From Candidatus Magasanikiibacteriota bacterium (GTDB lineage Bacteria > Patescibacteriota > Patescibacteriia > Magasanikbacterales > UBA922), in the NCBI GenBank assembly GCA_052033375.1, contig JBPOJQ010000014.1, positions 342-64,341 of the forward strand: a stretch of DNA of 64,000 bases. Direction: 5' to 3'. The notes beneath the pieces are model-generated. The model saw only the letters and a list, made by a program, of their open reading frames with translations. It was not told where the DNA came from and searched no databases. The translations under genes were made by a program, and so were the position numbers. Below, in pieces: positions 13,407-57,470 of the stretch (positions within the stretch are counted from its first letter, which is position 1; every line of letters begins with the position of its first letter).

Positions 13407-13459
13407 TTGACAAAAGATACTCTACACAGTAATTTCTATATGAGGAGGTTTCCACGAAA

Positions 13460-13708
13460 ATGAATAAAAACCAAAAGAATCCGCCCACAGAAGTACTGGG
13501 GTGTAATCGATGTGGGTACCGAGTACCTGAAGGAGAGACCACTCTCAGAAAAGGTCAGCCGTGCCCCAATCGCAGAAAATTCACCGACGGAGCGCGCTAC
13601 ACGGGTATCTACCAACATCTGTACGCTGGTCGCGAGAATCTTGAACCCACACGCGTACCCATGTGCCTACACGGCACACTCCGGTACATTCGGGTCAATT
13701 CTCTCTAG
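13460..13708 (+). CDS. hypothetical small protein on a GC-rich islet
   Basis: 82-aa ORF preceded by GAGGAGG 12 nt upstream of ATG; local composition visibly more GC-rich than flanks; CxxC…CP pattern but no confident family. Confidence 0.35.
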   Translation: MNKNQKNPPTEVLGCNRCGYRVPEGETTLRKGQPCPNRRKFTDGARYTGIYQHLYAGRENLEPTRVPMCLHGTLRYIRVNSL

Positions 13709-13853
13709 ACGACATCGCGTCTTTTCTCACCCGACACAGTAAGTGGTGTCCGTCGTGGAAGCAAGACAAGCCACCTCGACGTTATCAGCTTTGTAGCTAT
13801 ACAAGTTTGATAATGGGTGGCTTGTTTTTTCTACTCTTGCAATTACTATCTAT

Positions 13854-14633
13854 TTGCGCAATACTACCTACAGTTTCCTATTATTCTTAACTTACACAAC
13901 ATGTATGTGGGAAATTCTATCTGTGGCCCTATTTGTCATATTAATCAGCGTACGACAAGTAAACCAATACCAGCGCGGTGTAAAATTTCAGTTGGGTAAA
14001 TATGTCAAAATCGTAGAACCTGGATGGAGATTGGTTTTTCCTATTTTCCAGAGCATGCAAAAGGTAGATATTCGCACCAAGGCAGTTGATGTGCCCTACC
14101 AGGAAGCAATTACCAAAGATAACGTATCTGCAAAAATTAATGCTGTTATCTACTACCGCGTAGCTGATGCAGCAAAAGCAGTCCTCGAAGTGGAAAATTT
14201 CTGGTTTGCAGTATCACAGCTAGCACAAACCACCATGCGAAATGTGGTTGGACAACTCGAGCTCGATGAATTACTTGCTCGACGAGAAGAAGCTGCTAAA
14301 AAAATCCGTGAAATTATTGATGTAGCAACAGACGTATGGGGTATCAAAGTCGAAACGGTTGAATTAAAAGACATCACCCTTCCTGATGATATGCAGCGCG
14401 TAATTGCAAAACAGGCTGAAGCTGAACGTGAGAAACGCTCAGTAATCATCAAAGCAGAGGGAGAAATTGCTGCTGCTGAAAATATTGCAAAAGCAGCCCG
14501 TATGCTCTCTGATGCACCTGGAGCACTCCATCTTCGCACACTCAGCACGATTAATGATGTCAGTTCTGATCAATCCAACACTATCATTTTTGCAGTTCCT
14601 CTTGAGGTGCTTCGTTCATTTGAAAAAAAATAA
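13854..14633 (+). CDS. SPFH/band-7 (stomatin/prohibitin-like) membrane protein
   Basis: N-terminal TM helix then …QYQRGVKFQLGKYVKIVEPGWRLVFPIFQSMQKVDIRTKAVDV… and …IKVETVELKDITLPDDMQRVIAKQAEAEREKRS… typical of SPFH domain. Confidence 0.8.
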   Translation: MRNTTYSFLLFLTYTTCMWEILSVALFVILISVRQVNQYQRGVKFQLGKYVKIVEPGWRLVFPIFQSMQKVDIRTKAVDVPYQEAITKDNVSAKINAVIYYRVADAAKAVLEVENFWFAVSQLAQTTMRNVVGQLELDELLARREEAAKKIREIIDVATDVWGIKVETVELKDITLPDDMQRVIAKQAEAEREKRSVIIKAEGEIAAAENIAKAARMLSDAPGALHLRTLSTINDVSSDQSNTIIFAVPLEVLRSFEKK

Positions 14634-14663
14634 CGATTACACTCAATCTAGACTTTTCTACAC

Positions 14664-14689
14664 AAACCCTCTTCATGAGAAGAGGGTTT
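14664..14689 (+). terminator. hairpin (possible terminator) after SPFH gene
   Basis: AAACCCTCTTC-ATGA-GAAGAGGGTTT perfect 11-bp stem; weak U-tract. Confidence 0.35.
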
Positions 14690-14778
14690 GTAATATGATT
14701 GACAAAAGTGACACGTTTATATATACTCTTCAACACGTTTATACGGGTGTATACAGTGACAATTAAGCGATATAGTGG

Positions 14779-14853
14779 GGTGGCTATGGTGTAATGGTAG
14801 CACAGGAGATTGTGGCTCTCCTAGCACGGGTTCAATTCCCGTTAGTCACCCCA
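14779..14853 (+). tRNA. tRNA-His (anticodon GTG) with G-1 and encoded CCA
   Basis: Manual fold: G(-1)+GTGGCTA acceptor pairing TAGTCAC, discriminator C then CCA; D-arm GTGT/GCAC; anticodon stem GGAGA/TCTCC with loop TTGTGGC; T-arm ACGGG TTCAATT CCCGT. Confidence 0.85.
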
Positions 14854-15025
14854 GTGTACCGCTTCATGTATCATCTATCGTATCAGACGGACCAAACTCC
14901 TTGCATCGGCTCAATTTCTGTGGATTGATCGTAAAAAATGTTTTTTTACAATACAACGCCGACTCAGCGTTGTATTGTTTTCCAAAAATTAGCTATACTT
15001 GCTACTATCATATTCTTTTGCATTT

Positions 15026-16144
15026 ATGCGGACAAAAGTACTCATTGTCTCACTCTCAGCAGGATCGGGACATCTCCAGACAGCTCGGGCTCTCGAAAAA
15101 GCTGCACTACTCGAATTTCCTGAACTTGAGTGTAGACATATCGATATCGCTGACTATATCACTCCATTGCTCAAAAAAGCTACTGTCGAAGGATACGACT
15201 TTCTGGCTGCACATATGCCAAAGGTGTGGTCCGGAATATTTCGACTTACCGATAATCAAACATTTGCCAAAACTTACCAGGCCCTCACCGGATATCTAAA
15301 AATGCTCAATTCATTCGACTTTCTACGCGAAGTAGAAAAATTCAAACCTGACCATATTATTACGACGCATTTCCTGCCTTCAGAAATTCTCGTACACGCC
15401 ATGAAAAAACAAGGTATTTCTATCCCGATTACCCAAATTATTACAGACTATGGAGTACACCCCATGATGATAATCAACGGTGTCACCAACTATGTGGTCA
15501 GCACACCACACATGAAAGAAGAATTGATTCATACGTATCATATTCCTCCCGCACATATATATGACTTTGGTATTCCAATTGATCCCGCTTTTTACCATAT
15601 ACCGCCTCTAGATCCCACTCGATCTAAATATCACATTCCTCACGACAAGCCACTTATTCTGCTCTTATCCGGCGGAAGTGGACTAATTGAGCTTTCAGAC
15701 ATTATTGAAGAATTATTTGCACACATACATACACCAATTACCATTGTTTCCGTGGCAGGAAAAAACAAAAAGCTTTTAGCTCGTATTTCAAAACTTATTC
15801 CTCCGGCACATATTACCTACAGGCCCATTGGGTGGACTGATCATATTCCACAACTCATGAAACTTTCTTCAGTTGTTATTAGTAAGCCAGGAGGCCTCAC
15901 GACTACAGAGTGTATGGCAACTGGCGTACCCCTCATCGCAATTCACCCCATCCCAGGACAAGAAGAATTTAATATTGCATACGTGAAAAAAAACCATCTT
16001 GGTGATTTTGCCCAAACCGCCACTGATATTCCACCTCTTGTCGACAATTATTTTTCAAAAAAATCTGCATACAAAAAACAGACTGTGGTGCAGTCTGGTC
16101 GACAACTTCTCACATGTATTATCCAATCAAAAATCAACCATTAA
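15026..16144 (+). CDS. glycosyltransferase, GT28-like (MGDG synthase/UgtP/MurG-like)
   Basis: MRTKVLIVSLSAGSGHLQTARAL… N-terminal motif of the MGDG-synthase/UgtP family; C-terminal GT-B half (…SKPGGLTTTECMATGVPLI…); ORF track start 14999. Confidence 0.65.
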   Translation: MRTKVLIVSLSAGSGHLQTARALEKAALLEFPELECRHIDIADYITPLLKKATVEGYDFLAAHMPKVWSGIFRLTDNQTFAKTYQALTGYLKMLNSFDFLREVEKFKPDHIITTHFLPSEILVHAMKKQGISIPITQIITDYGVHPMMIINGVTNYVVSTPHMKEELIHTYHIPPAHIYDFGIPIDPAFYHIPPLDPTRSKYHIPHDKPLILLLSGGSGLIELSDIIEELFAHIHTPITIVSVAGKNKKLLARISKLIPPAHITYRPIGWTDHIPQLMKLSSVVISKPGGLTTTECMATGVPLIAIHPIPGQEEFNIAYVKKNHLGDFAQTATDIPPLVDNYFSKKSAYKKQTVVQSGRQLLTCIIQSKINH

Positions 16145-16617
16145 TCAGGATAGAGCCCGTACGTATCTTGATTTATCTGTATAGTCGGATCATACCCCGG
16201 TGACATCGGATTATTAATGCTTCCATATATTCCCATATAAATAAAATAGGTAATGCTGTATGCACCAAGTATTAGCGCCACTCCAACCACACAGTACATC
16301 AATATTTTTTTTCCTACTTCAATTTTTTCTTCATTACCACTCGAGGTCATGATCAAAAATCCAGCGTATAGCGCGAGCACTACTGCAATAATACCAATCA
16401 CACTCAATGATGTCTTAATGAGTCGAGACACGATTATACGTGGGTCAGAGTATTTCAATTCCGCCCCTTTTTGTCCTGCAAATGCATTCAACTGGGCTTC
16501 CATTTCGGATCCCTGAAACTGACCTGGTTTTTGTTCAGCATACACCACCGATGAGATGCCCACAAATATGTGCAAGGCCACAAATGTGAACAGTATTATT
16601 TTTTTTATTGTATACAT
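16141..16617 (-). CDS. VirB2/TrbC-like 'T4SS-pilin' family small membrane protein (paralog 1 of 11)
   Basis: Signal peptide plus conserved C-terminal core …SVIGIIAVVLALYAGFLIMTSSGNEEKIEVGKKILMYCVVGVALILGAYSITYF…: two hydrophobic helices separated by a GN(E/D)EK loop. Confidence 0.6.
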   Translation of the reverse strand: MYTIKKIILFTFVALHIFVGISSVVYAEQKPGQFQGSEMEAQLNAFAGQKGAELKYSDPRIIVSRLIKTSLSVIGIIAVVLALYAGFLIMTSSGNEEKIEVGKKILMYCVVGVALILGAYSITYFIYMGIYGSINNPMSPGYDPTIQINQDTYGLYPD

Positions 16618-16634
16618 AGAAACATGTGCTGTGT

Positions 16635-17078
16635 TTATCCACTGCCGATTGTCTCTGCCAATATCCGGCTTGTAATAAAATTGGTGATACTGTACGCGGA
16701 CACAATAATTATCAATCCTATCACCGCGTATTCAATAATTTTTTTTGCCTTGGACACATTTTCATCATTTCCTGCTGCTGTAAACACTAAAAATCCTGCA
16801 TACACTATTAAAACTACAAATACTATCCCTAATAAGGAAAGTACTAGTTGTATTCCTTTTGCAACGGTGATCCGTATATCTTGCGCTTCGGTACCATACC
16901 CTGCTGCTTTCGATCCTGCATTCAATTGTCCCATGATATCTGGTCCACCAGTAGTAGTCGCACTAGCCTCTAATGGCAATCCACAGACCCCGCACACGAG
17001 GACACCGAGCATACACATAAGGAGAAATTTCTGTGTTTTTTTCATACAAAAGAGTCTGATTGATTTTTCAATACTCAC
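16635..17078 (-). CDS. VirB2/TrbC-like 'T4SS-pilin' family small membrane protein (paralog 2)
   Basis: …LSLLGIVFVVLIVYAGFLVFTAAGNDENVSKAKKIIEYAVIGLIIIVSAYSITNF… shared core; Sec-type signal peptide. Confidence 0.6.
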   Translation of the reverse strand: MSIEKSIRLFCMKKTQKFLLMCMLGVLVCGVCGLPLEASATTTGGPDIMGQLNAGSKAAGYGTEAQDIRITVAKGIQLVLSLLGIVFVVLIVYAGFLVFTAAGNDENVSKAKKIIEYAVIGLIIIVSAYSITNFITSRILAETIGSG

Positions 17079-17079
17079 A

Positions 17080-17490
17080 TTAAGGACTTGTGCTTGAAGA
17101 AGTTATTGATCCCTCAAGTACACGCGGTACAACAAATCGAGTAATACTGTATGCCGCCATCAAAATTATCAATCCTATTACTGCCCTACCAATAATATTT
17201 TTTGCCTTAGCCACCTGCTCATCCTCTCCTCGAGCGGTCATCCAGAGATAGCCAGCATACACAATAAGCACCGTGAATAACACCCCTAATATTGAAAATA
17301 GTACAGTGATAATACGACCAATATTTTCTGCTAACGTAGTTTCTGTTGCTTGCACATAGCCTGCTTGCGCACCTGCTTTATGCACGTCTTCGATACCAAG
17401 ATTTTGAGCATGCGTGGTGGTCACTAATAACCCACACACGAGTGTCCCAAGGATAAAACTTATTTTTTTAAATATTTGATGATATGACAT
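17080..17490 (-). CDS. VirB2/TrbC-like 'T4SS-pilin' family small membrane protein (paralog 3)
   Basis: …FSILGVLFTVLIVYAGYLWMTARGEDEQVAKAKNIIGRAVIGLIILMAAYSITRF…. Confidence 0.6.
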   Translation of the reverse strand: MSYHQIFKKISFILGTLVCGLLVTTTHAQNLGIEDVHKAGAQAGYVQATETTLAENIGRIITVLFSILGVLFTVLIVYAGYLWMTARGEDEQVAKAKNIIGRAVIGLIILMAAYSITRFVVPRVLEGSITSSSTSP

Positions 17491-17557
17491 AGTATAAAGT
17501 TGAAATTTTGACTATCAGTGACCTTTTGGCATCCACTCACTGCTCATCCAGGATTGT

Positions 17558-17950
17558 TTAATTTCCACTAAATCGTGATGTGATAAATACTGTAATGGCG
17601 TATGATGACACCACAATAAATAATCCCATTATTGATGATTTGATAATTTCTTTTGCCTTGTTCACCTGCTCATCCTCTCCTCGAGCGGTCATCCAGAGGT
17701 AGCCAGCATACACTGTAAGGACCAAAAATATAATGCCGACCAGACTCAACACTGTCTTTATCACATTGCCCACCACCGCAGATAAATCCGTTGGTACATT
17801 TCCACCAATGCCTTTTTGCACATTTTGTAAATTATTCCCCGCATTTCCGAGGTTCCCAGTTCCGATTACCGTGGCTGGTAGCGCAACAATACCTAGTACC
17901 AAAAGTACTACCTGTACACAAATTTTTTTATATACATCATTTTTTTTCAT
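17558..17950 (-). CDS. VirB2/TrbC-like 'T4SS-pilin' family small membrane protein (paralog 4)
   Basis: …LSLVGIIFLVLTVYAGYLWMTARGEDEQVNKAKEIIKSSIMGLFIVVSSYAITVF…; 50-bp segment nearly identical to paralog 3. Confidence 0.6.
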   Translation of the reverse strand: MKKNDVYKKICVQVVLLVLGIVALPATVIGTGNLGNAGNNLQNVQKGIGGNVPTDLSAVVGNVIKTVLSLVGIIFLVLTVYAGYLWMTARGEDEQVNKAKEIIKSSIMGLFIVVSSYAITVFITSRFSGN

Positions 17951-17961
17951 ACAGAGTTCAT

Positions 17962-18354
17962 TTATTTACCGAAATTGACTGCATTTGTTACAAATGTCGC
18001 TATAGCATATCCGCCGACAGTTATGATAAGACCAATTACTGCCGCAGTGAGTGTCTGACGAGATTTTGCTATTTTTTCTTCCTCACCTCGAGCTAAGAAC
18101 CATGTGATGCCCGCGTATAGGGTAAGCACAAAAAATAAAAGTCCCAACATCCCAAAAATCCACTGGGCCACGTTCCCCACATAGGTAGCTACCTCATTTT
18201 TTGGTAGCCCAGTCGGGGCAATTGTCGAATCAAGAGCAGATCCAGCATCTTCGATAGTTTTTTTTGCATGCGCATACCCCACTTGTACAAAACTTGCACC
18301 TATCACTACCAATGTATACGCAATAATAATACGAGATTTTATTCCCATACACAT
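17962..18354 (-). CDS. VirB2/TrbC-like 'T4SS-pilin' family small membrane protein (paralog 5)
   Basis: …FGMLGLLFFVLTLYAGITWFLARGEEEKIAKSRQTLTAAVIGLIITVGGYAIATF…; likely start at internal Met (18348) to avoid overlap. Confidence 0.55.
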   Translation of the reverse strand: MCMGIKSRIIIAYTLVVIGASFVQVGYAHAKKTIEDAGSALDSTIAPTGLPKNEVATYVGNVAQWIFGMLGLLFFVLTLYAGITWFLARGEEEKIAKSRQTLTAAVIGLIITVGGYAIATFVTNAVNFGK

Positions 18355-18941
18355 AATGTAGCATTTGCATTACAAGACACCTCATCTGTCAACGTAGGAC
18401 AAATTGTCTTACCTTTTGATTCGCATGAAGTTCCTATATATGAACACAGATTCCCCCCACTTTCGCACACATCTTTGTTTTCCTGTGCAGTTAAAGCGCT
18501 GTCAACCGATGTAAGACAACTCGCTTCAATTGCTTTTTTAGATGTACACTTTCTTACTGTTTCAGTATTTGTATTATTACCTGTGTTTGCTCCCAATTTA
18601 AACACAAAATTGGTCAATGCATAGGCCCCAATAATGATAATAATTCCAATTGTTGCCGCGATAATAGTATTCAATGCTTTCTCGGTCTGCTCTGAGCTCC
18701 CTCGGGCCGTCATCCACAAAATTCCTCCGTATAGTACGAGTACAAAAAAAAGTACTGAGATCATCGAGAGAAGCGTACCGATTACATTTCCAGCAATCGT
18801 TGGTACACTATTGCCGTACGTGTCGAGTTTTGCGGCGCCAGCAGTCTCATCAAGACCAAAATTTCCTGCCAACACCGTCGTACCTAATGCAAAAATCAAT
18901 ACTACTACACCGATTCCCGCGATAATATACGCTCTTCTCAT
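18339..18941 (-). CDS. VirB2/TrbC-like core with C-terminal Cys-rich extension (paralog 6)
   Basis: MRRAYIIAGIGVVVLIF… then …LSMISVLFFVLVLYGGILWMTARGSSEQTEKALNTIIAATIGIIIIIGAYALTNF… followed by ~85-aa tail with 8 Cys; start chosen at 18941 to avoid overlap with upstream gene. Confidence 0.55.
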   Translation of the reverse strand: MRRAYIIAGIGVVVLIFALGTTVLAGNFGLDETAGAAKLDTYGNSVPTIAGNVIGTLLSMISVLFFVLVLYGGILWMTARGSSEQTEKALNTIIAATIGIIIIIGAYALTNFVFKLGANTGNNTNTETVRKCTSKKAIEASCLTSVDSALTAQENKDVCESGGNLCSYIGTSCESKGKTICPTLTDEVSCNANATLCVWE

Positions 18942-18951
18942 AAAAAATTTA

Positions 18952-19380
18952 TTAAGGATACATGGGGCCGCACGATCCGGTGGTTTCACACAAAGATCGA
19001 AGAACAAAACTCATGATTGAATATGAAGTCATGATAATTATCAGTCCCATTACTGCTGCAAAAAGTATTTTCTTTGCCGTACCTACTTTTTCATCATTTC
19101 CCCCCGCTGTCATCCAGGTAAATCCGGCATATAGAATAATCACTACCGAAACAATCCCCAATAAACTCAACGCAAAATTAATAATCCGAATGGTGATAAT
19201 ACGTGGATCTTCACCACTTAATCCTGAATACTCAGTACCTGCGCAATCAAGTCCTAATACATCTCCAGGATTGTCTGTACCATCACATCCTTGGGCTAAT
19301 ACGGGTCTTGGGTGTAGTGTCACAAGGGTAATCAAAAAAATACCTGATAAGAGACACGTAAGAATTTTTTTTGTATTCAT
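18952..19380 (-). CDS. VirB2/TrbC-like 'T4SS-pilin' family small membrane protein (paralog 7)
   Basis: Signal peptide; Cys pair in N-terminal part (QGCDGTDNPGDVLGLDCAG); …LSLLGIVSVVIILYAGFTWMTAGGNDEKVGTAKKILFAAVMGLIIIMTSYSIMSF…. Confidence 0.6.
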   Translation of the reverse strand: MNTKKILTCLLSGIFLITLVTLHPRPVLAQGCDGTDNPGDVLGLDCAGTEYSGLSGEDPRIITIRIINFALSLLGIVSVVIILYAGFTWMTAGGNDEKVGTAKKILFAAVMGLIIIMTSYSIMSFVLRSLCETTGSCGPMYP

Positions 19381-19474
19381 AGCATTCTAAGAGGATCAAA
19401 GCCTTCACCAACCTTTTGAAGAATCGGTGAGGGCTCTGACACCCGTACGGGTGTAAGAGTGAGAAGCACATTAC

Positions 19475-19888
19475 TTATGCTTCTTCTACCGCTGTTTGAA
19501 TTGAATTGATAAAGAAATTTGCAATCGCGTATGCAGATAAAATGATCGCAAGACCAATTACTGCAGCGATAATAATTTTCTTTGCCGCTTCTACACTTTC
19601 ATCGTTTCCACCAGCAGTCATCCATTTGAAACCACCCCAGAGGATCAATATTACTGCGATTAATCCTAAGAATGTTAACGCGAGGTTGATAATATTAACT
19701 ACCACTTCGCGTGCATCAGTCTCATCAGTACTGATGTTCAAACCCGTTGTTGGTTCGATACCAAATGGATCGTCATTTACATTTGTTGTGAAGGCAACTT
19801 TTGGTGATAACGTAAATACAGTTACTAAAGCTACAATAGCCAATAATACATTTCTATGCTTTAGTAATTTTGCTTGTATGTTTTTCAT
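19475..19888 (-). CDS. VirB2/TrbC-like 'T4SS-pilin' family small membrane protein (paralog 8)
   Basis: …LTFLGLIAVILILWGGFKWMTAGGNDESVEAAKKIIIAAVIGLAIILSAYAIANF…. Confidence 0.6.
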   Translation of the reverse strand: MKNIQAKLLKHRNVLLAIVALVTVFTLSPKVAFTTNVNDDPFGIEPTTGLNISTDETDAREVVVNIINLALTFLGLIAVILILWGGFKWMTAGGNDESVEAAKKIIIAAVIGLAIILSAYAIANFFINSIQTAVEEA

Positions 19889-20075
19889 ACTCCCTCACCC
19901 CCCTTCAATTTTTGACATGTTTTATACATAACAATGAATCACGTTTATGTACGAACTTACGAACAAATGCCGAAAGTACGAAACTTTATTTTACTATTCT
20001 TGGTTGCACCTCCAACTTTACTTAAAATAAATTTCGTACTTTCGTAATGGATTTCTTAAGTTCGTACGTATATTA

Positions 20076-20474
20076 TTAATTTGGACTCGCCTGTAACGTG
20101 GTTAAAATCAACGTAATTATAGCATAGCTACTAAAAACTACAATAATTCCAATTCCAGCCCAAAGCATCGCCTGTAATCCCTTCTGAATCTTTTCTGAAT
20201 TTCCTGCTGAGGTGAGCCAGAGAAAACCCCCGTACAGGAATACGACAAAGGTGATTGACCCCACGATTCCCATGATGACCTGAATTGTATTTCCTATAAT
20301 CACTTTTATATCCGATGTTTCGAGTGGGTTCACCAACGATACACATTCTTCTCCCGTACGACAAACACTTGCTGGTGTGCTCGAGGCCGAAGCTAATTGA
20401 AAATTACTAAAACTTATAAGAGTTCCAAATATAAGTATTATAATCACGACTAATTTTTTCCAACTTTTCTTCAT
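20076..20474 (-). CDS. VirB2/TrbC-like 'T4SS-pilin' family small membrane protein (paralog 9)
   Basis: …MGIVGSITFVVFLYGGFLWLTSAGNSEKIQKGLQAMLWAGIGIIVVFSSYAIITL…; CxxxxC in N-terminal region. Confidence 0.55.
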   Translation of the reverse strand: MKKSWKKLVVIIILIFGTLISFSNFQLASASSTPASVCRTGEECVSLVNPLETSDIKVIIGNTIQVIMGIVGSITFVVFLYGGFLWLTSAGNSEKIQKGLQAMLWAGIGIIVVFSSYAIITLILTTLQASPN

Positions 20475-20479
20475 ACTAA

Positions 20480-21652: not shown

Positions 21653-21660
21653 AAACTTAT

Positions 21661-38313: not shown

Positions 38314-38317
38314 ATAA

Positions 38318-49433: not shown

Positions 49434-49488
49434 ATAGTATAAATTAAAAACTCTACACCATTTCTAGTGCAGAGTTAGTATATTTGCT

Positions 49489-49758: not shown

Positions 49759-49885
49759 AGTTTCAATTAACAATTAGCAATAAACAACTAACAAAATCTG
49801 GGACATCGAGCATGTATTGTTAATTGCTCGTTGTTAGTCGTTCGTTAAAATGTGTGAGAGTAGGGAGAGTATAGCTAAGTGTAGC

Positions 49886-50983
49886 CTAATTGTCAAGCTG
49901 TGGCTTATCTAGGAGATCAGGTACGATTACCTTCTCACTTGCCCCGGTGATTCTGACCACATCTTTATCAATTTTACCCAGTTCCTTATACGCAGTGTTG
50001 AAATGATTGACCGTGGTCGACATACTCAATCCGAGCTTTTTCATATATTCATCATATGCATTAAGGTGTTTTCCTAGCATCTCTACATTTTTCCGAATCA
50101 TCTTAGCACCTTCTTCAATCTTCAAAGCTCGGAGACCGAAGAGTACGGTCTGGAGATAGGCTGAGAACGTTGTTGGTGAGACTATTACCACTTTCTTTTC
50201 ATTGAATGCATAATCAATCAGATTTCTGGTATTTACTTTTACAGCCCCCACTTCATTCACCAGGAGATCATAATAGATTGCTTCAGATGGAATATACATG
50301 AATGCAAATTCCAGCGTTCCCTCATCTGGCTTAATATATTTTGCTGTTTCATCAATTCGTTTTTTCAAATCATTTTTAAATTCTTTCTCAAGTTGCTCTC
50401 TGTTTGGACCCTCTGATTCATGAATCAATCGTTCGTAATTATCCAGAGAAAATTTAGAATCAACAGGAATTATTCCTTCTTTGGTAAATATCGCAACATC
50501 AACAATATCTCCATTATTAAAATGGTACTGGGTTTTAAAATCATTGGGTGATAAAATATTTTCAAGCAATAATTGAAGTCCCACTTCACCCAAATTCCCT
50601 CTCTGTTTCTGATGCTTCAACACTTTTTCAAGATTACTCAACTGTTCTGAAAAGCCAATTACTTGCTGATTGGTCTTATCTAGACTGGTTAATTTTTCGG
50701 TAATATCAGTAATGATTTTTGAACTCTGTGCAAATTGTGTTTGGAGTGTGTGGTGTAAATTCTGTTGACCATCTCCTACGATTTTATATGTTTCTGAAAT
50801 TTTACTATCCATTGTTTTTTGCATATCCTGCAACTGTTGTTGCAACATAAGAAACACTCCTTTGTCTTCATCAGGATTTTTCTTCTCCGCCTTACTTAAT
50901 TTTTTATACATTAATATAATCACCGCAAGCATCCCGAACAACAGTACGACAAATATTCCTAATAACACATTATTCATATACAA
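49886..50983 (-). CDS. rmuC: DNA recombination protein RmuC
   Basis: N-terminal TM helix, long coiled coil, C-terminal RmuC nuclease-like domain (…IVDVAIFTKEGIIPVDSKFSLDNY…FAFMYIPSEAIYYDL…). Confidence 0.8.
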   Translation of the reverse strand: MYMNNVLLGIFVVLLFGMLAVIILMYKKLSKAEKKNPDEDKGVFLMLQQQLQDMQKTMDSKISETYKIVGDGQQNLHHTLQTQFAQSSKIITDITEKLTSLDKTNQQVIGFSEQLSNLEKVLKHQKQRGNLGEVGLQLLLENILSPNDFKTQYHFNNGDIVDVAIFTKEGIIPVDSKFSLDNYERLIHESEGPNREQLEKEFKNDLKKRIDETAKYIKPDEGTLEFAFMYIPSEAIYYDLLVNEVGAVKVNTRNLIDYAFNEKKVVIVSPTTFSAYLQTVLFGLRALKIEEGAKMIRKNVEMLGKHLNAYDEYMKKLGLSMSTTVNHFNTAYKELGKIDKDVVRITGASEKVIVPDLLDKPQLDN

Positions 50984-51321
50984 CTAATTAGTATTTTCAT
51001 CATCCGGAGGATTCTTTTTTCCAACTTTACCAAAGAAAAATACAATGAGTGCGGCTCCTGCAGCACCAACGATAAGAATAAGAATTGATAAAAATCCATC
51101 CATAGTATTATCCATAATAACACAAACTTTTCTCTCTGTCATTCCCATACATACGTCATTCCCGCGAAAGTGGGAATCTTTTAGTCAAAGGACTGTAAAA
51201 CAAAAAGACACCACGATTGTGATGTACTTTTGGTTTGGGCGGAGCTCTTTGGCAGAACTCCGCAGTTTGTATGGGCTTTACTTCCGTGCCATTGGAAGGA
51301 GTGCGAGATGCGCCCAGATGT

Positions 51322-51807
51322 TCACCCCCAGAATCCGAGTCGCTGCCACCAGTGCGGCGGGTATTGTTTTTGAGGAATGTACACTCCCTCATGATCCAGG
51401 AATTTCCCCACCTGCGGTGGCGGACAGCCTAGTTCAAGACTATTGATCATGAAGATGAAGTTGCACACCCCTTTTCCGAGATAGGTCGAGAATGCGATCA
51501 CCCCTCCTCGACTCTTCAGGTACCCGAACTGATCGATTCCATGAAATCCGAACGGTAGCTCGAGTCTGAAGGTCAATAGTACTGAGAAATCCTTTCCTGA
51601 AGCATTTCTTAGTACAACGGTATGCATTCCCGGTTTCATGTTGACTCCTGCTGAACCGGGATAGTTCCACACCAGTCGTTGGTGGTCAGGACAGGTATCA
51701 ACAAACCCCTTCATGAACCCGAACTTCTTCACCATCTCCTTGCCAAGGAAGATAGCGGTAGCGAGGAAGATCAGAGCAAAGATCCATCCGATCATGATTT
51801 TCTCCAT
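51322..51807 (-). CDS. hypothetical membrane-anchored protein on a GC-rich islet
   Basis: 161-aa ORF, N-terminal TM helix, C/G-ending codons, flanked by AT-rich spacers. Confidence 0.4.
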   Translation of the reverse strand: MEKIMIGWIFALIFLATAIFLGKEMVKKFGFMKGFVDTCPDHQRLVWNYPGSAGVNMKPGMHTVVLRNASGKDFSVLLTFRLELPFGFHGIDQFGYLKSRGGVIAFSTYLGKGVCNFIFMINSLELGCPPPQVGKFLDHEGVYIPQKQYPPHWWQRLGFWG

Positions 51808-51972
51808 GTCCTTGGTTGTAAGGACAAAAAATTATATTACAAAACACCTCCTTTGTCAAGGTTATTTGACACATATTTACCAAGCTCTAAAACTATCTTG
51901 TAAATTTATATTTACTAATATATACTATATATATGCTTAATTATTATCTATTGTAAATTTATATTTACAATT

Positions 51973-52716
51973 ATGCAGATTGAAGAGCTGGTAAAAATTG
52001 GATTGGCAGAAACTGAAGCAAAGACATATCTTGCTCTTCTTGAACTTGGATCAGGAACTGTGACATCAATCACCCACCGAGCTGGTATTACCCGCACCCT
52101 TGGCTACCACTCACTTGATCGATTAGTAGAGTTAGATTTGATTGAACAAAAAAAGAATTCACAGCCCGCAGAGTTCCACGTGAAACATCCACGAAAATTA
52201 ATTGAGTATGCGGAACGACAAAAAAACTTGTGGAACAATCGTATAAATGACGCGGAAATTCTCTTGCCAAAACTTGAGTCGTCATATACAATGCTCGGGC
52301 ACCCATTTCTTTCACATCGTGTAGGAAAAGAAGCGGTATTGGATTTGTATAGAACACTGTATACAAATAAAACTGCATTTATCTCTCTTCTCAATCCTAC
52401 CATTCTCGACCGTGAAACTCTTATAGACTTTTTCCAAGCTAAATCTCAGTCTGATAGCTCCTCACACATTTGTTGTATATTTGATACTCCGAAAAATAGA
52501 CTTATTCTCGAGGATCTTCCCAGGACACCTGTCATTACATGGATTTCTTCCTCGAAAGTACACGCAGATGTATACAAAGCGATTGAAATTATCATCTCCG
52601 AAGATACTGTACATACTATCAGCAGTAAGGATGGTGAATTGTGTATCGATAGTATTACTCACCAAGCAACCACAGGCTTAATGTACACACTATTGTATAC
52701 ATTAATAGAAAAATAG
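51973..52716 (+). CDS. TrmB-family transcriptional regulator
   Basis: N-terminal wHTH …LVKIGLAETEAKTYLALLELGSGTVTSITHRAGITRTLGYHSLDRLVELDLIEQ… typical TrmB; C-terminal TrmB_C-like domain. Confidence 0.6.
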   Translation: MQIEELVKIGLAETEAKTYLALLELGSGTVTSITHRAGITRTLGYHSLDRLVELDLIEQKKNSQPAEFHVKHPRKLIEYAERQKNLWNNRINDAEILLPKLESSYTMLGHPFLSHRVGKEAVLDLYRTLYTNKTAFISLLNPTILDRETLIDFFQAKSQSDSSSHICCIFDTPKNRLILEDLPRTPVITWISSSKVHADVYKAIEIIISEDTVHTISSKDGELCIDSITHQATTGLMYTLLYTLIEK

Positions 52717-52792
52717 CTTCGTTACCCACTCTGTTTCATGTGAAACAAACAGCGGGATACAATCCAATTGCCGACCTCCCGCCATGGCCCAT

Positions 52793-52865
52793 GCTCTCGT
52801 AGTTCAATGGATAGAACAAGACACTCCTAACGTCTAGATACAGGTTCGATTCCTGTCGAGGGCAC
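52793..52865 (+). tRNA. tRNA-Arg (anticodon CCT)
   Basis: Manual fold: acceptor GCTCTCG/CGAGGGC, D-arm GTTC…GAAC, anticodon stem AGACA/CGTCT loop CTCCTAA, T-arm ACAGG TTCGATT CCTGT. Confidence 0.8.
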
Positions 52866-53246
52866 AGGCGATGGCAGGCTGAGAACAATAACCACAACTA
52901 CACGTAGACGCAGATCTATCTCACGATAGAAGTACTAACGTATCAAATTTACGTGATAGGGAGCACAGGCATAGTGTACAACTACACAGGTGATTTGCGT
53001 CTACACATCAAAATACTATCTCAAGATGGTGTTTTTATTTATACCTATCATACTCTAGTAGGGGGGAGTGGCACGCAGCTCATTATACGCAATCATGATC
53101 TACAAGGCTCATGTACAGGGCGTATGTACAAAAATTTTACTTATTTTTGCTTATTTAATAATATATAGTATGTCGTACAATATTATTATAGGTATATTTT
53201 ATAATTGGTCCTGCCAAAAAAAAATCTTTTTTTAGGTCATTCACAC

Positions 53247-53275
53247 CTTGCTTTTGTTTGTAACATGTGATATAA
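53247..53275 (+). promoter_or_regulatory. sigma70-type promoter (TTGCTT-17-TGaTATAAT) driving GC-rich small gene
   Basis: TTGCTT at 53247, 17-nt spacer, extended -10 TGATATAAT ending 53275; ATG at 53321 with AAGGTGGG RBS. Confidence 0.55.
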
Positions 53276-53320
53276 TCTTTTCAGTTTCTTTTCTACACAC
53301 ACCCCTTCAAGGTGGGAAGA

Positions 53321-53605
53321 ATGTACGAATTTCTTGTTTCGGCAGTCCTTATCGCTATCGCCGTCGATGTAGCTCGATACATCATCGAGCGCGTCGATGC
53401 AGATCGAACTCTCAAGAGCGTCGAAGACGCCGTCTCCCCTCCGCCGAAAGATAAAGTCGACGATATGGTGAGCTGGTTCTTCGCCCAAGAAGATCCCGTC
53501 AAAGACGTTCATCGTCCACACATGCGTTCTCCTCGGAGAAGAAGGTGTGACCGATACCAACGTCGCAGACCCCACGTGCCGTCCACGTCATGGAGGTGGC
53601 ACTAG
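53321..53605 (+). CDS. hypothetical small protein on a GC-rich islet (TM helix plus Arg-rich tail)
   Basis: MYEFLVSAVLIAIAVDV… GC-rich codons; two perfect palindromes (GGTGGCACTAGTGCCACC; GTGTCCCAGG…CCTGGGACAC) follow the stop. Confidence 0.4.
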   Translation: MYEFLVSAVLIAIAVDVARYIIERVDADRTLKSVEDAVSPPPKDKVDDMVSWFFAQEDPVKDVHRPHMRSPRRRRCDRYQRRRPHVPSTSWRWH

Positions 53606-53766
53606 TGCCACCTATCGACTCCTCCCCGTGTCCCAGGTTCGTTCGCACACCGAATGAGCCTGGGACACCTACTTCAAAGATTTCAATAATCTTTTTTTTA
53701 TTATATAAGGTTTGATTTTTTCTATCTCTTCTGTTACACTCCGCAATACAAAACTAACTTGTTATT

Positions 53767-54840
53767 ATGCTATCGATTGGAATTGTCGGACTCCCCAATG
53801 TAGGAAAATCAACACTCTTCAATGCGCTTACCAAAAGTAAGCTTGCTGAAGCTGCAAACTATCCTTTTTGCACGATTGAGCCGAATGTGGGAGTCGTTGA
53901 AGTTCCTGATGCACGCCTTGCCCCTCTTGCTACCACTTCAAAATCTGGAAAAATCATCCCAACCGCGATTCAATTCGTTGATATTGCTGGAATTGTAAAA
54001 GGTGCATCAGAAGGAGAAGGGTTGGGAAATAAATTTCTTACCCATATTCGCGAGGCTGACGCAATCGTGCAAGTGGTCCGTGCATTTGAAGATGGAAATA
54101 TTATACACGTCGCAGGAAAAGTGGATCCCAAAGATGATAGCGATGTCATCAATCTCGAACTTGCTCTTGCTGATCTCGCGACTGTGTCAAAACGATTGGA
54201 TAAAACAAAACGTGATGCAAAAGGCGCAGCCGCAAAAGGAAAAGAAGTGGAAATTGCAGTGCTCGAAAAACTAAATGCACAACTCGAAGGAGGAAAGGCG
54301 ACTCGTGAACTAGAATTTAACGATGAAGAAAAAATAATCGTCCGTGATTTACATTTACTTACCATGAAACCAATGATGTATGTGGTAAATGTGAAAGAAG
54401 ATATGATTGGAAAGGCTGATTTCTCCCCAATTTTCGGCACAACCCCGTATATCGAAATTAGCGCAAAAATCGAAGCAGAAATTGCAGAACTTTCTTCTGA
54501 TGATGCAAAAATGTTTATGGAAGATTTGGGAATGAAAGAGACCGGGCTTGATCGATTGATTGTTGCTGGATACAAACTACTTAATCTCATCACCTATTTT
54601 ACTTCCGGAGAACAGGAAACTCGAGCATGGACGGTGACGCGTGGGACACTGGGGCCTGACGCCGCAGGAGTCATCCATACCGATTTTATCAAAGGATATA
54701 TCAAAGCTGATGTCGCGAGTGTTGCTGACTTTGTAGAACTTGGTGGCTGGCCAGGAGTGAAGGAAAAAGGCAAGATGCAGCTCGTCGGAAAAGATTATGA
54801 AGTGAAAGATGGTGATGTATGTTATTTTCATATTGCATAG
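53767..54840 (+). CDS. ychF: ribosome-binding ATPase YchF
   Basis: MLSIGIVGLPNVGKSTLFNALT…AANYPFCTIEPNVG… canonical YchF G1/G2, C-terminal TGS domain. Confidence 0.9.
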   Translation: MLSIGIVGLPNVGKSTLFNALTKSKLAEAANYPFCTIEPNVGVVEVPDARLAPLATTSKSGKIIPTAIQFVDIAGIVKGASEGEGLGNKFLTHIREADAIVQVVRAFEDGNIIHVAGKVDPKDDSDVINLELALADLATVSKRLDKTKRDAKGAAAKGKEVEIAVLEKLNAQLEGGKATRELEFNDEEKIIVRDLHLLTMKPMMYVVNVKEDMIGKADFSPIFGTTPYIEISAKIEAEIAELSSDDAKMFMEDLGMKETGLDRLIVAGYKLLNLITYFTSGEQETRAWTVTRGTLGPDAAGVIHTDFIKGYIKADVASVADFVELGGWPGVKEKGKMQLVGKDYEVKDGDVCYFHIA

Positions 54841-55037
54841 GAAAGTCAAAGTTTAAAACACACACGTAAAGAGATAATATACATACACTGTGAAATTAAA
54901 AAACCGCCCTCCCATTCGAGGTGCGGTTTTATTTTAGGATTTCGTTCTAATTTTCAGAACTCATCAGTTCACGTTTCACATGAAGATCCTTTGGAGCCAG
55001 CTCGACCTAGTGTCGAGTCTGACTCCGCGTAACATTG

Positions 55038-55751
55038 TCACGGCGCTCGGGTGAGTACCACACGCACTGGCTTGGTGAGGTACACCCCTTTTGGATTGCC
55101 CCCTCCATCAGGCCAATATTCGACGATCACCCCACCTGCGTGGCCATCGAGAAGCACTCCTCCACCGAATGATTCGACCAAACTCACCTCGAAGCTCTGT
55201 TCGACGACATCTTTCTCAAAGGGAAAGTCCCGCCACCAGATGTTGAGGAAGAATTCGAGTGAATCTCCCTCCGCAAGACCGTCGGTATCCCCGTCGATCA
55301 TGCCGTAGGCGTGGTCGACCTGAACACCTGCGCTGTACCACCAGCCACGGTACCTGTTCTCCTCACCCTCAGGGAGATGACTCAGGTGCATATCCGGCAG
55401 TCCGAAGATTGAGTACTCACCTTCTTCCTCCCATTGGACCTTGAAGCCCACGCCGTGGAAGTTCAGGTTCGTACACCCACGGATCTCGACCTTCATGACC
55501 ACAGTGTCCATGGCCATGTCTGGATCGTCTGGGATCTCGACCCTGACTTCGTCCTCCGCGATCGTGCGGACGATGTAGTCGATACCCTCCGGGCACCCAG
55601 AGGTGATCTCTTCCGAGGAGTCGGAAGGTAGCACCGTTTCTACTGCGTCCAGATGTGCATCCTCACGCTTGACGCCACCCTCCCGAGCTTCGAGACAGGC
55701 GACGTTCATGATGGCAACGGCGGCGAAGACGATGGTAACGATAGAATTCAT
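55038..55751 (-). CDS. hypothetical secreted protein on a GC-rich islet
   Basis: 237 aa; signal peptide MNSIVTIVFAAVAIMNVACLEA; acidic beta-rich body; strong G/C third positions. Confidence 0.45.
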   Translation of the reverse strand: MNSIVTIVFAAVAIMNVACLEAREGGVKREDAHLDAVETVLPSDSSEEITSGCPEGIDYIVRTIAEDEVRVEIPDDPDMAMDTVVMKVEIRGCTNLNFHGVGFKVQWEEEGEYSIFGLPDMHLSHLPEGEENRYRGWWYSAGVQVDHAYGMIDGDTDGLAEGDSLEFFLNIWWRDFPFEKDVVEQSFEVSLVESFGGGVLLDGHAGGVIVEYWPDGGGNPKGVYLTKPVRVVLTRAP

Positions 55752-55854
55752 GAGAACACTCCTTGGGCCATGAGGCCTCGTTTGGTTGACACGGAATAAT
55801 ATACATCATAAAAAGAGCATTTTGTCAATGCTCCACGACCTCTGTTGTATACTT

Positions 55855-56115
55855 TTATGGTATGTCTTCACCGCCCTTTGACCATGGATTACACCGGATA
55901 ATGCGCCAGATGGTCAATGGAACTCCTCGAATTACTCCATATTTTTTGATTGCCTGATATCCATATTCACTACAGGTGGGATGAAATTTGCAGTATCCAT
56001 ACGGAAATTTTGCTTTTAAAGGTCCATGATCGGGCGAAAGTGTTCGTTGGTAGACGCGGATTAAAAACAGAAGAATATATTTTGGAATAGAAACAATAAA
56101 TCTCAATAAACGCAT
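55855..56115 (-). CDS. yidD: membrane protein insertion efficiency factor YidD
   Basis: …[57 protein letters not shown]… YidD signature; downstream of rnpA. Confidence 0.8.
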
Positions 56116-56150
56116 ATTTTATTATATTTGAGCGAAAAATCCGTATTATA

Positions 56151-56528
56151 TTACACAAGAAGTCGTCCTTTTTTGAGAATTGACTCAATATCTGTCTTTA
56201 TCTGAATATAATCTGCGTCAAAAAGCTTAGGCGTTGAGAGAAATGCAATAAAATATCCTGACCTAATTTGTCCCTCTTTTACCAAAAGACGTACTACTTC
56301 ACGCATCTGTCGCTTTACGCGATTACGCCCTACCGCTTTCTTTTCATGTTTTACACTCGCAACAAACCCAATTTTTAAATCATTCTCTTTATATCCTCGT
56401 TTTGGAAATTTACTAGGGTCTATTTTCCATATTTTTGCATTCATGAGTGATCCTACGACAAATCTGCCTTCAGCAAACAGGATTTCAAAATCTTTCATTT
56501 TTTTGAGACGGTGCTCCTGAGGAAGCAT
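56151..56528 (-). CDS. rnpA: ribonuclease P protein component
   Basis: …LKIGFVASVKHEKKAVGRNRVKRQMREVVR… RnpA RNR motif; rpmH-rnpA-yidD order. Confidence 0.85.
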   Translation of the reverse strand: MLPQEHRLKKMKDFEILFAEGRFVVGSLMNAKIWKIDPSKFPKRGYKENDLKIGFVASVKHEKKAVGRNRVKRQMREVVRLLVKEGQIRSGYFIAFLSTPKLFDADYIQIKTDIESILKKGRLLV

Positions 56529-56695
56529 ATATTATTTATTCCCTTACCCAAAAGACTGGGTTATGGCTGTTGGGGGTTGATCCTAATAAAAGGACCAACC
56601 CCCGTGATGATGCTGCCTGATTAGAGGCGTACACCTAACATAGTATAAACAACAACCCCGCTCATGACAAAGGGCGGGGTTGTTAATTTCTTTTT

Positions 56696-56872
56696 TTATC
56701 TGGTTTTTTTAGTTCGCTTTCCTTTTCGTTCACTGCTTACAGTAAGCTTTTTTCGTCCTTTAGCTCGACGACGTTTCAACACATCGCGACCATTTTTGGT
56801 TGTCATTTTTTTCAAAAACCCATGAGTCTTTGCTCGTTTACGTTTTTTTGGCTGATATTTTCGTTTTGGCAT
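56696..56872 (-). CDS. rpmH: 50S ribosomal protein L34 (with short basic C-terminal extension)
   Basis: Not in ORF track (<60 aa); manual translation [45 protein letters not shown]… matches L34; positioned upstream of rnpA. Confidence 0.75.
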
Positions 56873-57056
56873 ACAAAATTGCTCCTTAAGAAGTTATTTA
56901 ATAAATATACTATACACTATTTTTTGTGTTTTGTCAAGAAAAAATCTCTAATTTTAGTGAATTTAGGAGCACTGCGCCAAACCCGTGCATCCAGTCCGAA
57001 GACCGTGATGTCAAAAGTTGGCGCAGCGCTACGAAAGAGTTCCCTCTTGCCCCCCC

Positions 57057-57332
57057 CTAGCGGACGAGTGGGTACCGGAAGAACAGGGTGTATGCACCAG
57101 GAGGCACACGCGGAATCGTCCCCTCGGCATGAGGAGGAATTCTCGTCGTCTCAGCGATCGCCTTCGGCGACTCTCCGTGCCGGACCACACAGCACTCCAG
57201 ATGATGGCTCCTGTGGTTCGTCACGACAGCTTCTCCCCCTTCGTTCACAACCACCGCAACTCTCCCATAGTCATGGGCCGTGCGGCCGGGCTTGCCGAGC
57301 CTCAGACTACTCCATCGTTCTAGATTCGACAT
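57057..57332 (-). CDS. hypothetical small protein on a GC-rich islet in the rpmH-dnaA spacer
   Basis: 91-aa minus ORF with AGAGGAA RBS 5 nt before ATG and TTGACA…TACTAT-like promoter upstream; preferred over overlapping plus-strand S/P/R-rich ORFs. Confidence 0.35.
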   Translation of the reverse strand: MSNLERWSSLRLGKPGRTAHDYGRVAVVVNEGGEAVVTNHRSHHLECCVVRHGESPKAIAETTRIPPHAEGTIPRVPPGAYTLFFRYPLVR

Positions 57333-57470
57333 GCGGTTCCTCTTGCGTGAGTTGGGTTTTCTCCCCGTACATACCCCTAATTCAGGAGTACTTTAGAGAT
57401 GAACGATAGTAAACACAAAAAAAGCTTAGTTGTCAATAATTTTAATTTCAGGCATACTAGTTTCTCCCAC

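Follow-up and report, generated by a model that had tools for sequence, protein, structure and literature searches.

GC-rich single-gene cassettes in conserved slots between the housekeeping genes of an AT-rich Magasanikbacteria genome

The 64,000-nt stretch of DNA analyzed here, hereafter the window (contig JBPOJQ010000014.1 of assembly GCA_052033375.1, positions 342 to 64,341), belongs to a Candidatus Magasanikiibacteriota bacterium of the candidate phyla radiation (CPR), and its DnaA falls into a 90%-identity cluster named Candidatus Magasanikbacteria. Scattered among its core genes are ten short GC-rich islets, each with one small open reading frame (ORF), which are the subject of this analysis. 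The mean GC content of the window is 0.409 (standard deviation 0.055, sliding 200-nt windows), and the sliding-window analysis revealed ten blocks of 0.4-0.9 kb with GC of 0.48-0.61 at the peak versus 0.41 in the window. GC of at least 0.50 was found in the blocks at 13441-13820, 37541-38100, 40441-40940, 41101-41620, 44481-45100, 51161-51580, 53281-53700, 54901-55840 and 56921-57420, and a weaker block at 39960-40310 has GC 0.48; the strong blocks peak at 0.54-0.61. The original prediction, made from the letters of the sequence, had described GC-rich segments of 0.3-0.8 kb, and its coordinates proved accurate to ~100 nt. All islets but islet 1 fall in a 20-kb region to one side of dnaA (37500-57400) and account for 25% of its DNA; none occurs at 14-37 kb or downstream of dnaA (57600-64000).

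Codon usage of the ten islet ORFs was compared with that of a core reference set of 57 window ORFs. GC content at third codon positions (GC3) is 0.335 ± 0.035 (range 0.24-0.41) in the core set and 0.53-0.68 in the islet ORFs (z = 5.6-9.8 above the core mean). The distribution of GC3 in the window is bimodal, with an empty gap between islet and core ORFs; the preference for C- and G-ending codons noticed earlier by eye is therefore borne out by computation, and GC3 is far from uniform. The shift is seen in every synonymous codon family, as illustrated by the islet versus core shares of TTC (0.78/0.30), TAC (0.82/0.27), AAG (0.67/0.16) and CTC (0.49/0.20), and it extends to the first and second codon positions. 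GC content at four-fold degenerate sites (GC4) is 0.61 in the islets and 0.35 in core genes, and the non-coding DNA of the blocks has GC 0.50, compared to 0.34 in the remaining intergenic DNA. As had been supposed, the islet ORFs are mutually unrelated (no match at E < 0.5 in an all-versus-all blastp search). Membrane and secreted proteins, initially thought to dominate, are predicted for half of the set: a hydrophobic N-terminal or internal segment is present in five of the ten proteins and absent from the other five. Two islet proteins are strongly acidic, with net charges of -20 and -28.

On the coding strand, each block shows a TTGACA-17-TATAAT-like promoter, an AGGAG-type ribosome-binding site (RBS), the ORF, a GC-rich 3' untranslated region (UTR) of 60-130 nt and a T-run hairpin. 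The cassettes are dispersed over seven slots, each with its own promoter. Near-consensus promoters together with hairpin terminators are predicted at islets 3, 4, 5, 7, 8, 9, and 10; the top promoter matches in the 37.5-57.5 kb region (10-12 of 12 positions) belong to islets 3, 4, 5, and 7 and to tig, rpmH, and rpsT, and terminator hairpins are predicted 3' of the same four islets. Sigma70-like promoters, Shine-Dalgarno sequences and terminators of their own, ascribed to several islets in the original prediction, are thus predicted for several of them here as well. The identities of the flanking genes (tig, polA, NDH-2, RmuC, TrmB-like, YchF, YidD, RnpA, and DnaA) were confirmed, and with them the location of the islets between housekeeping genes; the statement that the islets sit singly holds for the other slots, but the tig/polA gap contains three tandem cassettes.

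Syntenic loci of relatives were taken from independent assemblies, namely metagenome-assembled genomes (MAGs) from NCBI, JGI metagenomes, and Logan assemblies of SRA data (L081 with L082, L083, L084, L085-L088, L089, L090 with L091, L092 with L093, and L094; below, L0xx and L1xx denote loci of relatives, and W the window in tree and distance comparisons). The core genes of these relatives are 70-90% identical to the window at the nucleotide level. In every relative, small slot genes without Pfam domains are GC-rich (GC3 0.53-0.91 versus ~0.30 in core genes); those variable genes that do have a Pfam domain (DUF559, HAD) resemble the core in being AT-rich (GC3 ~0.3). As the same slots are GC-rich in every relative, the cassettes are a feature of the clade rather than of the strain, and the presence of GC-rich genes in the same slots of at least eight relatives' independent assemblies excludes a chimeric assembly, a concern raised at the outset. 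Slots and promoters are kept across the relatives, and the GC-rich body of a cassette can persist while its protein diverges fast, pass between related lineages as a precisely bounded unit, give way to an unrelated GC-rich body, or disappear. Where a slot is empty, the DNA between the core genes is short and AT-rich, and across the loci compared each family was seen in one slot only. High-GC3 small ORFs number 1.52 per 10 kb in the clade, 1.03 in relatives whose RmuC is 66-78% identical, 0.23 in more distant ones and 0.20 in unrelated low-GC controls (loci from a YchF contig scan, with a best identity of 62% among the matches listed). In wider relatives with RmuC identity of at least 66%, GC-rich genes still occupy the same kinds of slot; a comparison with 80 loci from wider relatives (RmuC identity 50-78%) detected none of the window's islet families.

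Islet 1 (13440-13830, plus strand; GC 0.51, GC3 0.53, z = 5.6) follows tRNA-Arg(TCT). A putative promoter, TTGACA-17-TAATTT (~13407-13435), and a GAGGAGG RBS precede an ORF (13460-13708) for a putative basic 82-aa protein with four cysteines (CxxC...CP), and the GC-rich 3' UTR is followed by a predicted terminator hairpin (~13770-13825). Upstream of it are genes for an Avd-like/23S-rRNA-intervening-sequence four-helix-bundle protein (11816-12220) and a Xer-like recombinase (12229-13257), then tRNA-Arg(TCT); neither a reverse transcriptase nor a template repeat was seen near the Avd-like gene in the 11816-13368 neighborhood.

Islet 2 (37560-38095, plus strand; GC3 0.68) lies between a methyltransferase (MTase) gene and the DUF167 gene; its ORF (37605-37964) encodes a 119-aa protein of family 138TM with one predicted transmembrane (TM) segment and is followed by a 130-nt GC-rich 3' UTR. 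Orthologs are present in the same slot of L081, L084, and L094 at synonymous distances (dS) of 0.9-1.8, with ratios of nonsynonymous to synonymous distance (dN/dS) of 0.20-0.31 and with GC3 of 0.59-0.68, and in L086 the slot measures 22 bp and contains no gene. In L089 (8202-8549) the same slot holds a 115-aa ORFan unrelated to islet 2, with its own TTGACA...TATACT promoter and terminator; having GC3 of 0.91 in a genome of 41% GC, it surpasses all other members of the class. An exceptionally stable hairpin (38322-38426; -50.7 kcal/mol, z = -7.0 versus shuffled sequences) is located between the tig stop and the DUF167 start; its 45-nt arms consist of AAUCCGUG/CACGGAUU repeats, and the region is 89-90% identical to L081, above the neighboring DNA. 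Possible roles are those of a small RNA, a bidirectional terminator or an array bound by protein.

The three cassettes of the tig|polA gap are all on the minus strand. Islet 3 (39960-40455; GC3 0.61) has a predicted TTGACA-17-TATACT promoter (40398-40370) and an ORF (40303-39968) for a 111-aa protein with two TM segments; it is not present in L081 or L082. It lies between 124-nt direct repeats that form a 3' UTR/terminator module: copy 1 (39836-39959, minus strand) is 3' of islet 3 and upstream of the tig promoter, and copy 2 (40456-40579, minus strand) is 3' of islet 4. The two copies (repeat family D2) are 97% identical and are predicted to fold into three small hairpins and a terminator (39882-39857 and 40502-40477; z = -2.9); one copy is present in L081 and one in L082, and none in the other loci compared. 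Islet 4 (40456-41085; GC3 0.61), with this module at its 3' end, has a predicted TTGACA-17-TATATT promoter (41081-41053) and an ORF (40891-40571) for the 106-aa acidic protein with net charge -20; a divergent homolog (38% identity, GC3 0.77) occupies the same slot of L084. Islet 5 (41135-41620) has a predicted TTGACA-17-TATTTT promoter (41617-41589) and terminator (41177-41144), and its GC3 is 0.65 in frame versus 0.45 in the antisense ORF. The ORF, ending at 41192, would encode 146 aa from the ATG at 41632, although a start at an internal ATG after AAGGGGG (~118 aa) appears more likely. The mechanically called polA ORF, beginning with TTG at 41646, overshoots the homologous start by ~29-36 codons; with the true start near 41733, the divergent islet 5 promoter fits between the two genes.

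Islet 6 (44480-45120, minus strand) occupies the polA|NDH-2 slot; after a leader of ~120 nt, its ORF (44990-44547) encodes a protein of 147 aa (144 from ATG), the 147 family, with a predicted alpha/beta fold. Islet 7 (51190-51860, minus strand; GC3 0.59) lies between rmuC and the TrmB-like gene, with a predicted consensus-like promoter (TTGACA-17-TATAAT, 51859-51831), a predicted terminator (51225-51208) and an ORF (51807-51322) for a 161-aa protein (161 family) with an N-terminal TM segment. Its homologs in the same slot are 92% (L084) and 53-55% (L085, L092) identical in amino acids and keep GC3 of 0.58-0.65 even at dS > 2; the cassette is not present in L083. Islet 8 (53247-53690, plus strand; GC3 0.57) is found between tRNA-Arg(CCT) and ychF. 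The promoter proposed for it earlier, TTGCTT-17-TGATATAAT, is present at ~53249 (TTGCTT-17-(TG)ATATAAT, ~53249-53277), and the ORF (53321-53605; 94 aa, 94TM family, N-terminal TM segment) is followed by a 3' hairpin. In L083 and L092, homology covers the promoter, the 5' UTR and the N-terminus, and the remainder is strongly diverged (motifs ARYI..R and DDMVSWFF), which identifies islet 8, on sequence similarity, as a fast-diverging ortholog of the L083 and L092 slot genes.

Islet 9 (54900-55830, minus strand; GC 0.57, GC3 0.68) fills the ychF|yidD slot, where the intergenic gap is 1014 bp in the window versus 67 bp in L083. Its predicted promoter (TTGACA...TATATT, ~55827-55798) and AAGGAG RBS precede an ORF (55751-55038) for a 237-aa protein with a hydrophobic helix at its N-terminus and an acidic all-beta region after it (net charge -28), and a 3' module with a bidirectional terminator lies at ~54900-54935. 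At the junctions its nearest relatives are ~75-85% identical; L090 and L092 carry unrelated genes of ~110 aa in this slot, and a 45-nt 3' module and the bidirectional terminator alone are in common. Islet 10 (56960-57440, minus strand; GC 0.60) is in the rpmH|dnaA slot. It has a predicted promoter TTGACA-17-TTTACTAT (~57436-57406), an AGAGGA RBS, an ORF of 91 aa (57332-57057) and a long 3' hairpin. A cluster of 3-4 DnaA boxes (TTATCCACA-like, ~57455-57500) upstream of dnaA, kept in L083, L090, and L092, adjoins this divergent promoter, so islet 10 may be controlled by DnaA or border on oriC. All four genomes (window, L083, L090, and L092) retain the DnaA boxes together with the TTGACA...TTTACTAT promoter, homology stops right after the -10 element and restarts past the terminator, and in the three relatives the body is a gene of 92-101 aa unrelated to islet 10, with GC3 of 0.54-0.70. 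Variation in the presence of islets among relatives, which the original prediction proposed to look for, is thus real (islet 9 is missing in L083, islet 3 in L081, islet 7 in L083), and conservation of the ORFs in relatives, which it had counted as evidence against itself, was found for the 147, 138TM, 161, 94TM, and acidic families only.

The GC-richness of the islets does not fade with time. GC3 is 0.58-0.68 in all lineages of the 147, 138TM, and 161 families, in which pairwise dS reaches 0.8, 1.8, and >2.5, respectively. Amelioration of a foreign composition would be visible as lower GC3 in older copies and an excess of GC→AT changes, neither of which was observed. In the 147 block, changes polarized by parsimony comprise 41 GC→AT and 38 AT→GC; evolution under the regime of core genes would make 71-74% of them GC→AT, from which the observed balance differs with p = 4e-4 to 3e-5. 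The composition is therefore at equilibrium rather than a decaying donor signature. In a sister clade, a family of ~200-245 aa located directly after rmuC (L116 11348-12088, L109 11208-11936, homologs in L108-L114 and L117) has GC3 of 0.75-0.85 in four lineages whose genomes have 41-45% GC. Its protein evolution is 5-10 times faster than that of RmuC (nonsynonymous distance, dN, 0.17-0.68 versus 0.03-0.06). It is unrelated to the window islets and represents an independent instance of the same phenomenon.

Some cassettes have moved between relatives as units. The 147 family has dS of 0.2-0.8, 2-8 times lower than its flanking genes (0.8-2.9). In the neighbor-joining tree of this family, L081 groups with L089 (100% bootstrap) and L084 with L085 (99%), while the tree of concatenated polA, tig, and NDH-2 unites L081 with L084 and W with L085 (100% each). 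In a sliding comparison, the nearest relative of L081 changes from L084 to L089 solely inside the GC block of islet 6 (~650 nt), and the AT-rich spacers on either side of this block are its least conserved surroundings. Islets 4 and 5 of the window are 95-99% identical to their counterparts in L081 (dS 0.00-0.01), in comparison with dS of 0.90 for tig and 1.16 for polA. The gene of islet 4 differs from that of L081 (10001-10318) by one codon indel and ~5 substitutions, all of them non-synonymous (dS 0.00, dN 0.02; proteins 94% identical), a pattern that hints at positive selection on the acidic-protein gene after a very recent exchange. No boundary motif, uptake sequence or k-mer is common to the islets beyond chance; of the direct repeats that the original prediction suggested seeking at the boundaries, the 124-nt repeat flanking islet 3 was found, but no boundary motif shared by the islets.

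Several lines of evidence indicate that the islets encode proteins. The ratio dN/dS (omega) is 0.25-0.35 in the 147 family, 0.11-0.31 in 138TM, 0.07-0.20 in the 161 family and ~0.3 in the acidic family. These four and the rpmH|dnaA family of L083, L090, and L092 combine dN/dS < 1, conserved proteins and in-frame indels; on the whole, islet dN/dS is 0.1-0.7 versus 0.04-0.1 in neighboring genes. Codon-position periodicity (GC1 > GC2 < GC3) and appropriate RBS spacing were also found. Islet 5 and its L081 counterpart, being 97-99% identical at the nucleotide level, differ by too few changes for a coding test (omega ~0.9). None of the ten islet ORFs had a Pfam, PHROGs or PADLOC match above the cut-offs, no meaningful PHROG match was seen, and a PDB sequence search with the 237-aa ORF, the 161-aa ORF and the 147 family found nothing. 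An AlphaFold2 model of the 147 family (pLDDT 77) gave weak Ras/FeoB-like alpha/beta matches in a Foldseek search of PDB (TM-score ~0.45), which are uninformative as a P-loop is not present; the 'Rossmann-like' protein suggested earlier is accordingly retained as a generic alpha/beta fold, but the nucleotide-binding motif is not present. The single-sequence model of the 237-aa protein of islet 9 (pLDDT 47) is too low in confidence to use.

Homologs were sought among 5.8e9 proteins and by an exhaustive profile search of 1.84e9 representatives. The 147 family has ten homologs, all from Magasanikbacteria; in the profile search it comprised six clusters, five of them additional, and its member P0032 in L094 occupies the same slot, being 39% identical versus 68-81% for core proteins. 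The 237-aa ORF of islet 9 and the 115-aa ORF of L089 matched only themselves among the 5.8e9 proteins. For the islet proteins searched, no homologs were found outside the clade, and scans of viral contigs with four islet proteins gave no matches. In the literature, we found no earlier description of GC-rich islets or ORFans in CPR or Magasanikbacteria.

We hold with moderate confidence that the islets represent a class of small accessory genes native to this clade and restricted to it, which are exchanged, replaced and lost as whole cassettes and whose GC-richness is actively maintained. Exchange would involve DNA taken up from relatives and homologous recombination over short patches; because the flanks are too diverged, such recombination would be limited to the block together with the promoter and terminator modules that are conserved. 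The force that favors GC would act on the whole recombining or transcribed unit, most likely through a bias toward GC in the repair of recombination heteroduplexes, or alternatively through selection on the transcript as a whole. GC-biased gene conversion (gBGC) is a fitting candidate, since recombination co-localizes with GC and non-coding sites are affected too. The islet products, half of them membrane-anchored or exported by prediction, are probably surface, host- or phage-contact proteins under diversifying selection. Several points weigh against this explanation. Parsimony polarization is biased at high divergence, with a core-gene control giving an excess of AT→GC (weak-to-strong, W>S) changes, and it draws on 79 changes in one family. 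The low dS of the islets could partly reflect constraint on GC instead of exchange, and neither block-specific recombination machinery nor an uptake signal was found. Conversion would need an unprecedented magnitude to account for a gap of 25-50 GC3 points; bacterial gBGC, according to what Lassalle et al. reportedly described in 2015, shifts the GC3 of core genes modestly, by a few percentage points. Islets 1, 5, and 10 are favored as protein-coding by RBSs and codon periodicity only, the islet units would be expressed judging from their motifs alone, and all sequences compared are MAG or metagenome contigs. The singletons (islet 9 and the 115-aa ORF of L089) have no relatives, and a foreign origin, recent in cases such as islet 9, or a de novo origin is possible for them.

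The original prediction saw the islets as imported genes whose source could be a GC-rich host or partner or else a mobile agent. Repeated independent acquisition from such a donor (host, partner or a phage/plasmid pool), with the composition as the donor's signature, would account for the deviant GC and codon usage, the moron-like architecture, the variable presence, the unrelated bodies in the same slot and the very high GC3 of singletons (0.68 in islet 9, 0.91 in L089). Broader relatives (L153, L157, and L164), with genome-wide GC3 of 0.50-0.58, could be donors, and a pool constantly re-imported from a GC-rich replicon would also balance the substitutions. However, no outside homolog appeared in either protein collection, in PHROGs or in the four viral-contig scans; the families hold one slot each clade-wide, including the divergent L094; GC3 is unchanged after synonymous saturation without an excess of GC→AT; and the promoters and 3' modules are native and slot-specific. 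We consider such a donor rather unlikely, and import lacks support as a general explanation, given the missing outside homologs and the GC3 that does not decay. From the earlier picture of repeated foreign insertion, presence/absence variation and lateral transfer of at least one family survive, but the families are fixed to their slots and no integrase is associated with them. The islets may instead be a nursery of de novo genes, in which GC-rich, stop-poor DNA behind strong promoters in recombination-prone slots spawns new proteins. ORFans without homologs anywhere searched, long ORFs on both strands of most blocks, promoters kept while bodies are unrelated, a full turnover of families between the narrow and the wider clade with the GC-rich slots staying, and the small size and fast evolution of the proteins agree with this; yet no non-coding GC-rich intermediate was identified, slots that lack a gene contain little DNA and this is AT-rich, purifying selection acts on several families that are old and folded, and the origin of new GC-rich DNA is left without explanation. 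We regard the nursery as doubtful, and similarly improbable is the combined idea that GC-biasing repair of heteroduplexes in short recombining tracts, tied to cassette exchange, would generate and preserve GC-rich, stop-poor DNA behind strong conserved promoters and turn the slots into nurseries of small, often surface-exposed de novo proteins that are tested and traded among relatives.

GC-rich intergenic regions in AT-rich genomes are a classic signature of non-coding RNA (ncRNA) genes, and the ORFs might be artefacts of a low frequency of stop codons. The lack of protein-family matches, the ORFs on both strands, the folding scores (z = -2.7 for islet 5, -2.5 for the coding strand of islet 10, and -2.9 for the 124-nt module) and the omega of islet 5 are compatible with structured RNAs. 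The codon periodicity, well-placed RBSs, dN/dS of 0.07-0.35 and in-frame indels in five families speak for proteins; Rfam found only tRNAs in the window, both at the gathering threshold and at E <= 1, and the plus strand of islet 10, opposite to the gene, folds like shuffled sequences (z = -0.7). An ncRNA origin of the class is thus very improbable. The window is a metagenome-assembled contig, in which reads of a GC-rich organism might have been joined into an AT-rich sequence by assembly or binning; the chance of this is negligible, as the same slots are GC-rich in independent assemblies with near-identical or diverged orthologs, and both junctions of every block run into conserved native promoters or terminators.

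Among known systems, morons of phages HK97 and HK022 are single extra genes between genes that are adjacent in relatives, and they spread laterally (PMC3594210). The islets resemble them in having their own predicted promoter and terminator, in their deviant composition (GC 0.50-0.61 versus 0.41, GC3 z = 5.6-9.8) and in lying between genes that are adjacent in relatives (ychF-yidD, 67 bp in L083; MTase-DUF167, 22 bp in L086). They differ in being chromosomal, between housekeeping genes next to oriC, with no relatives among phage families or viral contigs; their families are bound to one slot, and their composition is a maintained equilibrium rather than a scar of transfer. Chromosomal integrons, such as the Vibrio superintegron with its ~125-nt VCR/attC repeats, carry small, strain-variable cassettes, mostly encoding small proteins of no assigned function. 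Size (0.4-1 kb), small proteins, high turnover, and the position of islets 3 and 4, each before the same 124-nt structured module, are reminiscent of these cassettes; in contrast to a promoterless tandem array, the islets are dispersed singly with their own promoters. An integron was rejected: the only tyrosine recombinase (12229-13257) is best described as XerD/XerC/XerA, with the IntI model far below the cut-off, and lies at least 24 kb from most islets; no attC-like motif is common to the cassettes, the 124-nt module being confined to the tig|polA slot. A tRNA-linked island or integrative element was rejected too, as islets 1 and 8 alone are near a tRNA, att-like repeats were not found and the cargo is a single gene of <1 kb. 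The same holds for a diversity-generating retroelement, since no template/variable-type repeat touches the islets and no reverse transcriptase is present among the window ORFs scanned.

Flexible islets and ORFans, known from O-antigen and capsule loci, metagenomic islands and the ORFan analysis of Daubin and Ochman, are typically AT-richer than the genome. The islets share with them strain variability, short length, fast evolution, frequent surface-related features, conserved positions and replacement by recombination, but the polarity of composition is reversed (GC3 higher by 0.25 to 0.55) and each unit consists of one gene. In bacterial gBGC, recombining sequences are GC-richer at synonymous and intergenic sites, independently of codon selection, which mimics selection for GC (PMC4450053). 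The recombination evidence for islet 6 (incongruence with 99-100% bootstrap, the tract coinciding with the GC block), the dS of ~0 that separates islets 4 and 5 of W from their L081 counterparts, and the parallel enrichment of four-fold (0.61/0.35) and non-coding (0.50/0.34) sites agree with this pattern. The islet shift, however, is sharp, bimodal and delimited by blocks, and gBGC is a candidate here.

What is new is that cassettes of a moron-like or flexible kind, known as such, carry a maintained GC bias. Accessory genes and ORFans are normally AT-richer than their genomes, and a deviant composition is taken for a trace of transfer that fades with time; the islets reverse this rule, and a reduced AT-rich CPR genome contains a second, GC-rich class of genes at compositional equilibrium. 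If confirmed, this would call for caution in using GC or codon deviation to detect horizontal transfer in such genomes, and would provide a sharply bounded natural system for separating GC-biased conversion from selection. The exchanged fast-evolving small proteins, often membrane-bound or secreted, would then be the obvious ones to consider when looking for factors of attachment to hosts or interaction with phages in uncultured episymbionts, and the cassettes might offer a view of ORFan origin. Were the nursery true, it would be a built-in system of innovation in a genome otherwise shaped by reduction.

Other features of the window and its relatives deserve mention. At least seven paralogous genes with the T4SS_pilin domain (PF18895) are located at 16141-23835, four of them sharing an 88-nt repeat (repeat family D1); the array adjoins a gene for an N-terminal-methylation (pilin-like) protein, and a T2SSE/T2SSF/PilM cluster was found at 26.8-35 kb. 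In L094, polA is split into two ORFs (10815-13519; 210 and 691 aa) by a frameshift or an assembly error. A 468-aa protein encoded at 5993-7399 has two matches to MATCAP (PF08014, microtubule-associated tyrosine carboxypeptidase), unexpected in a CPR bacterium.

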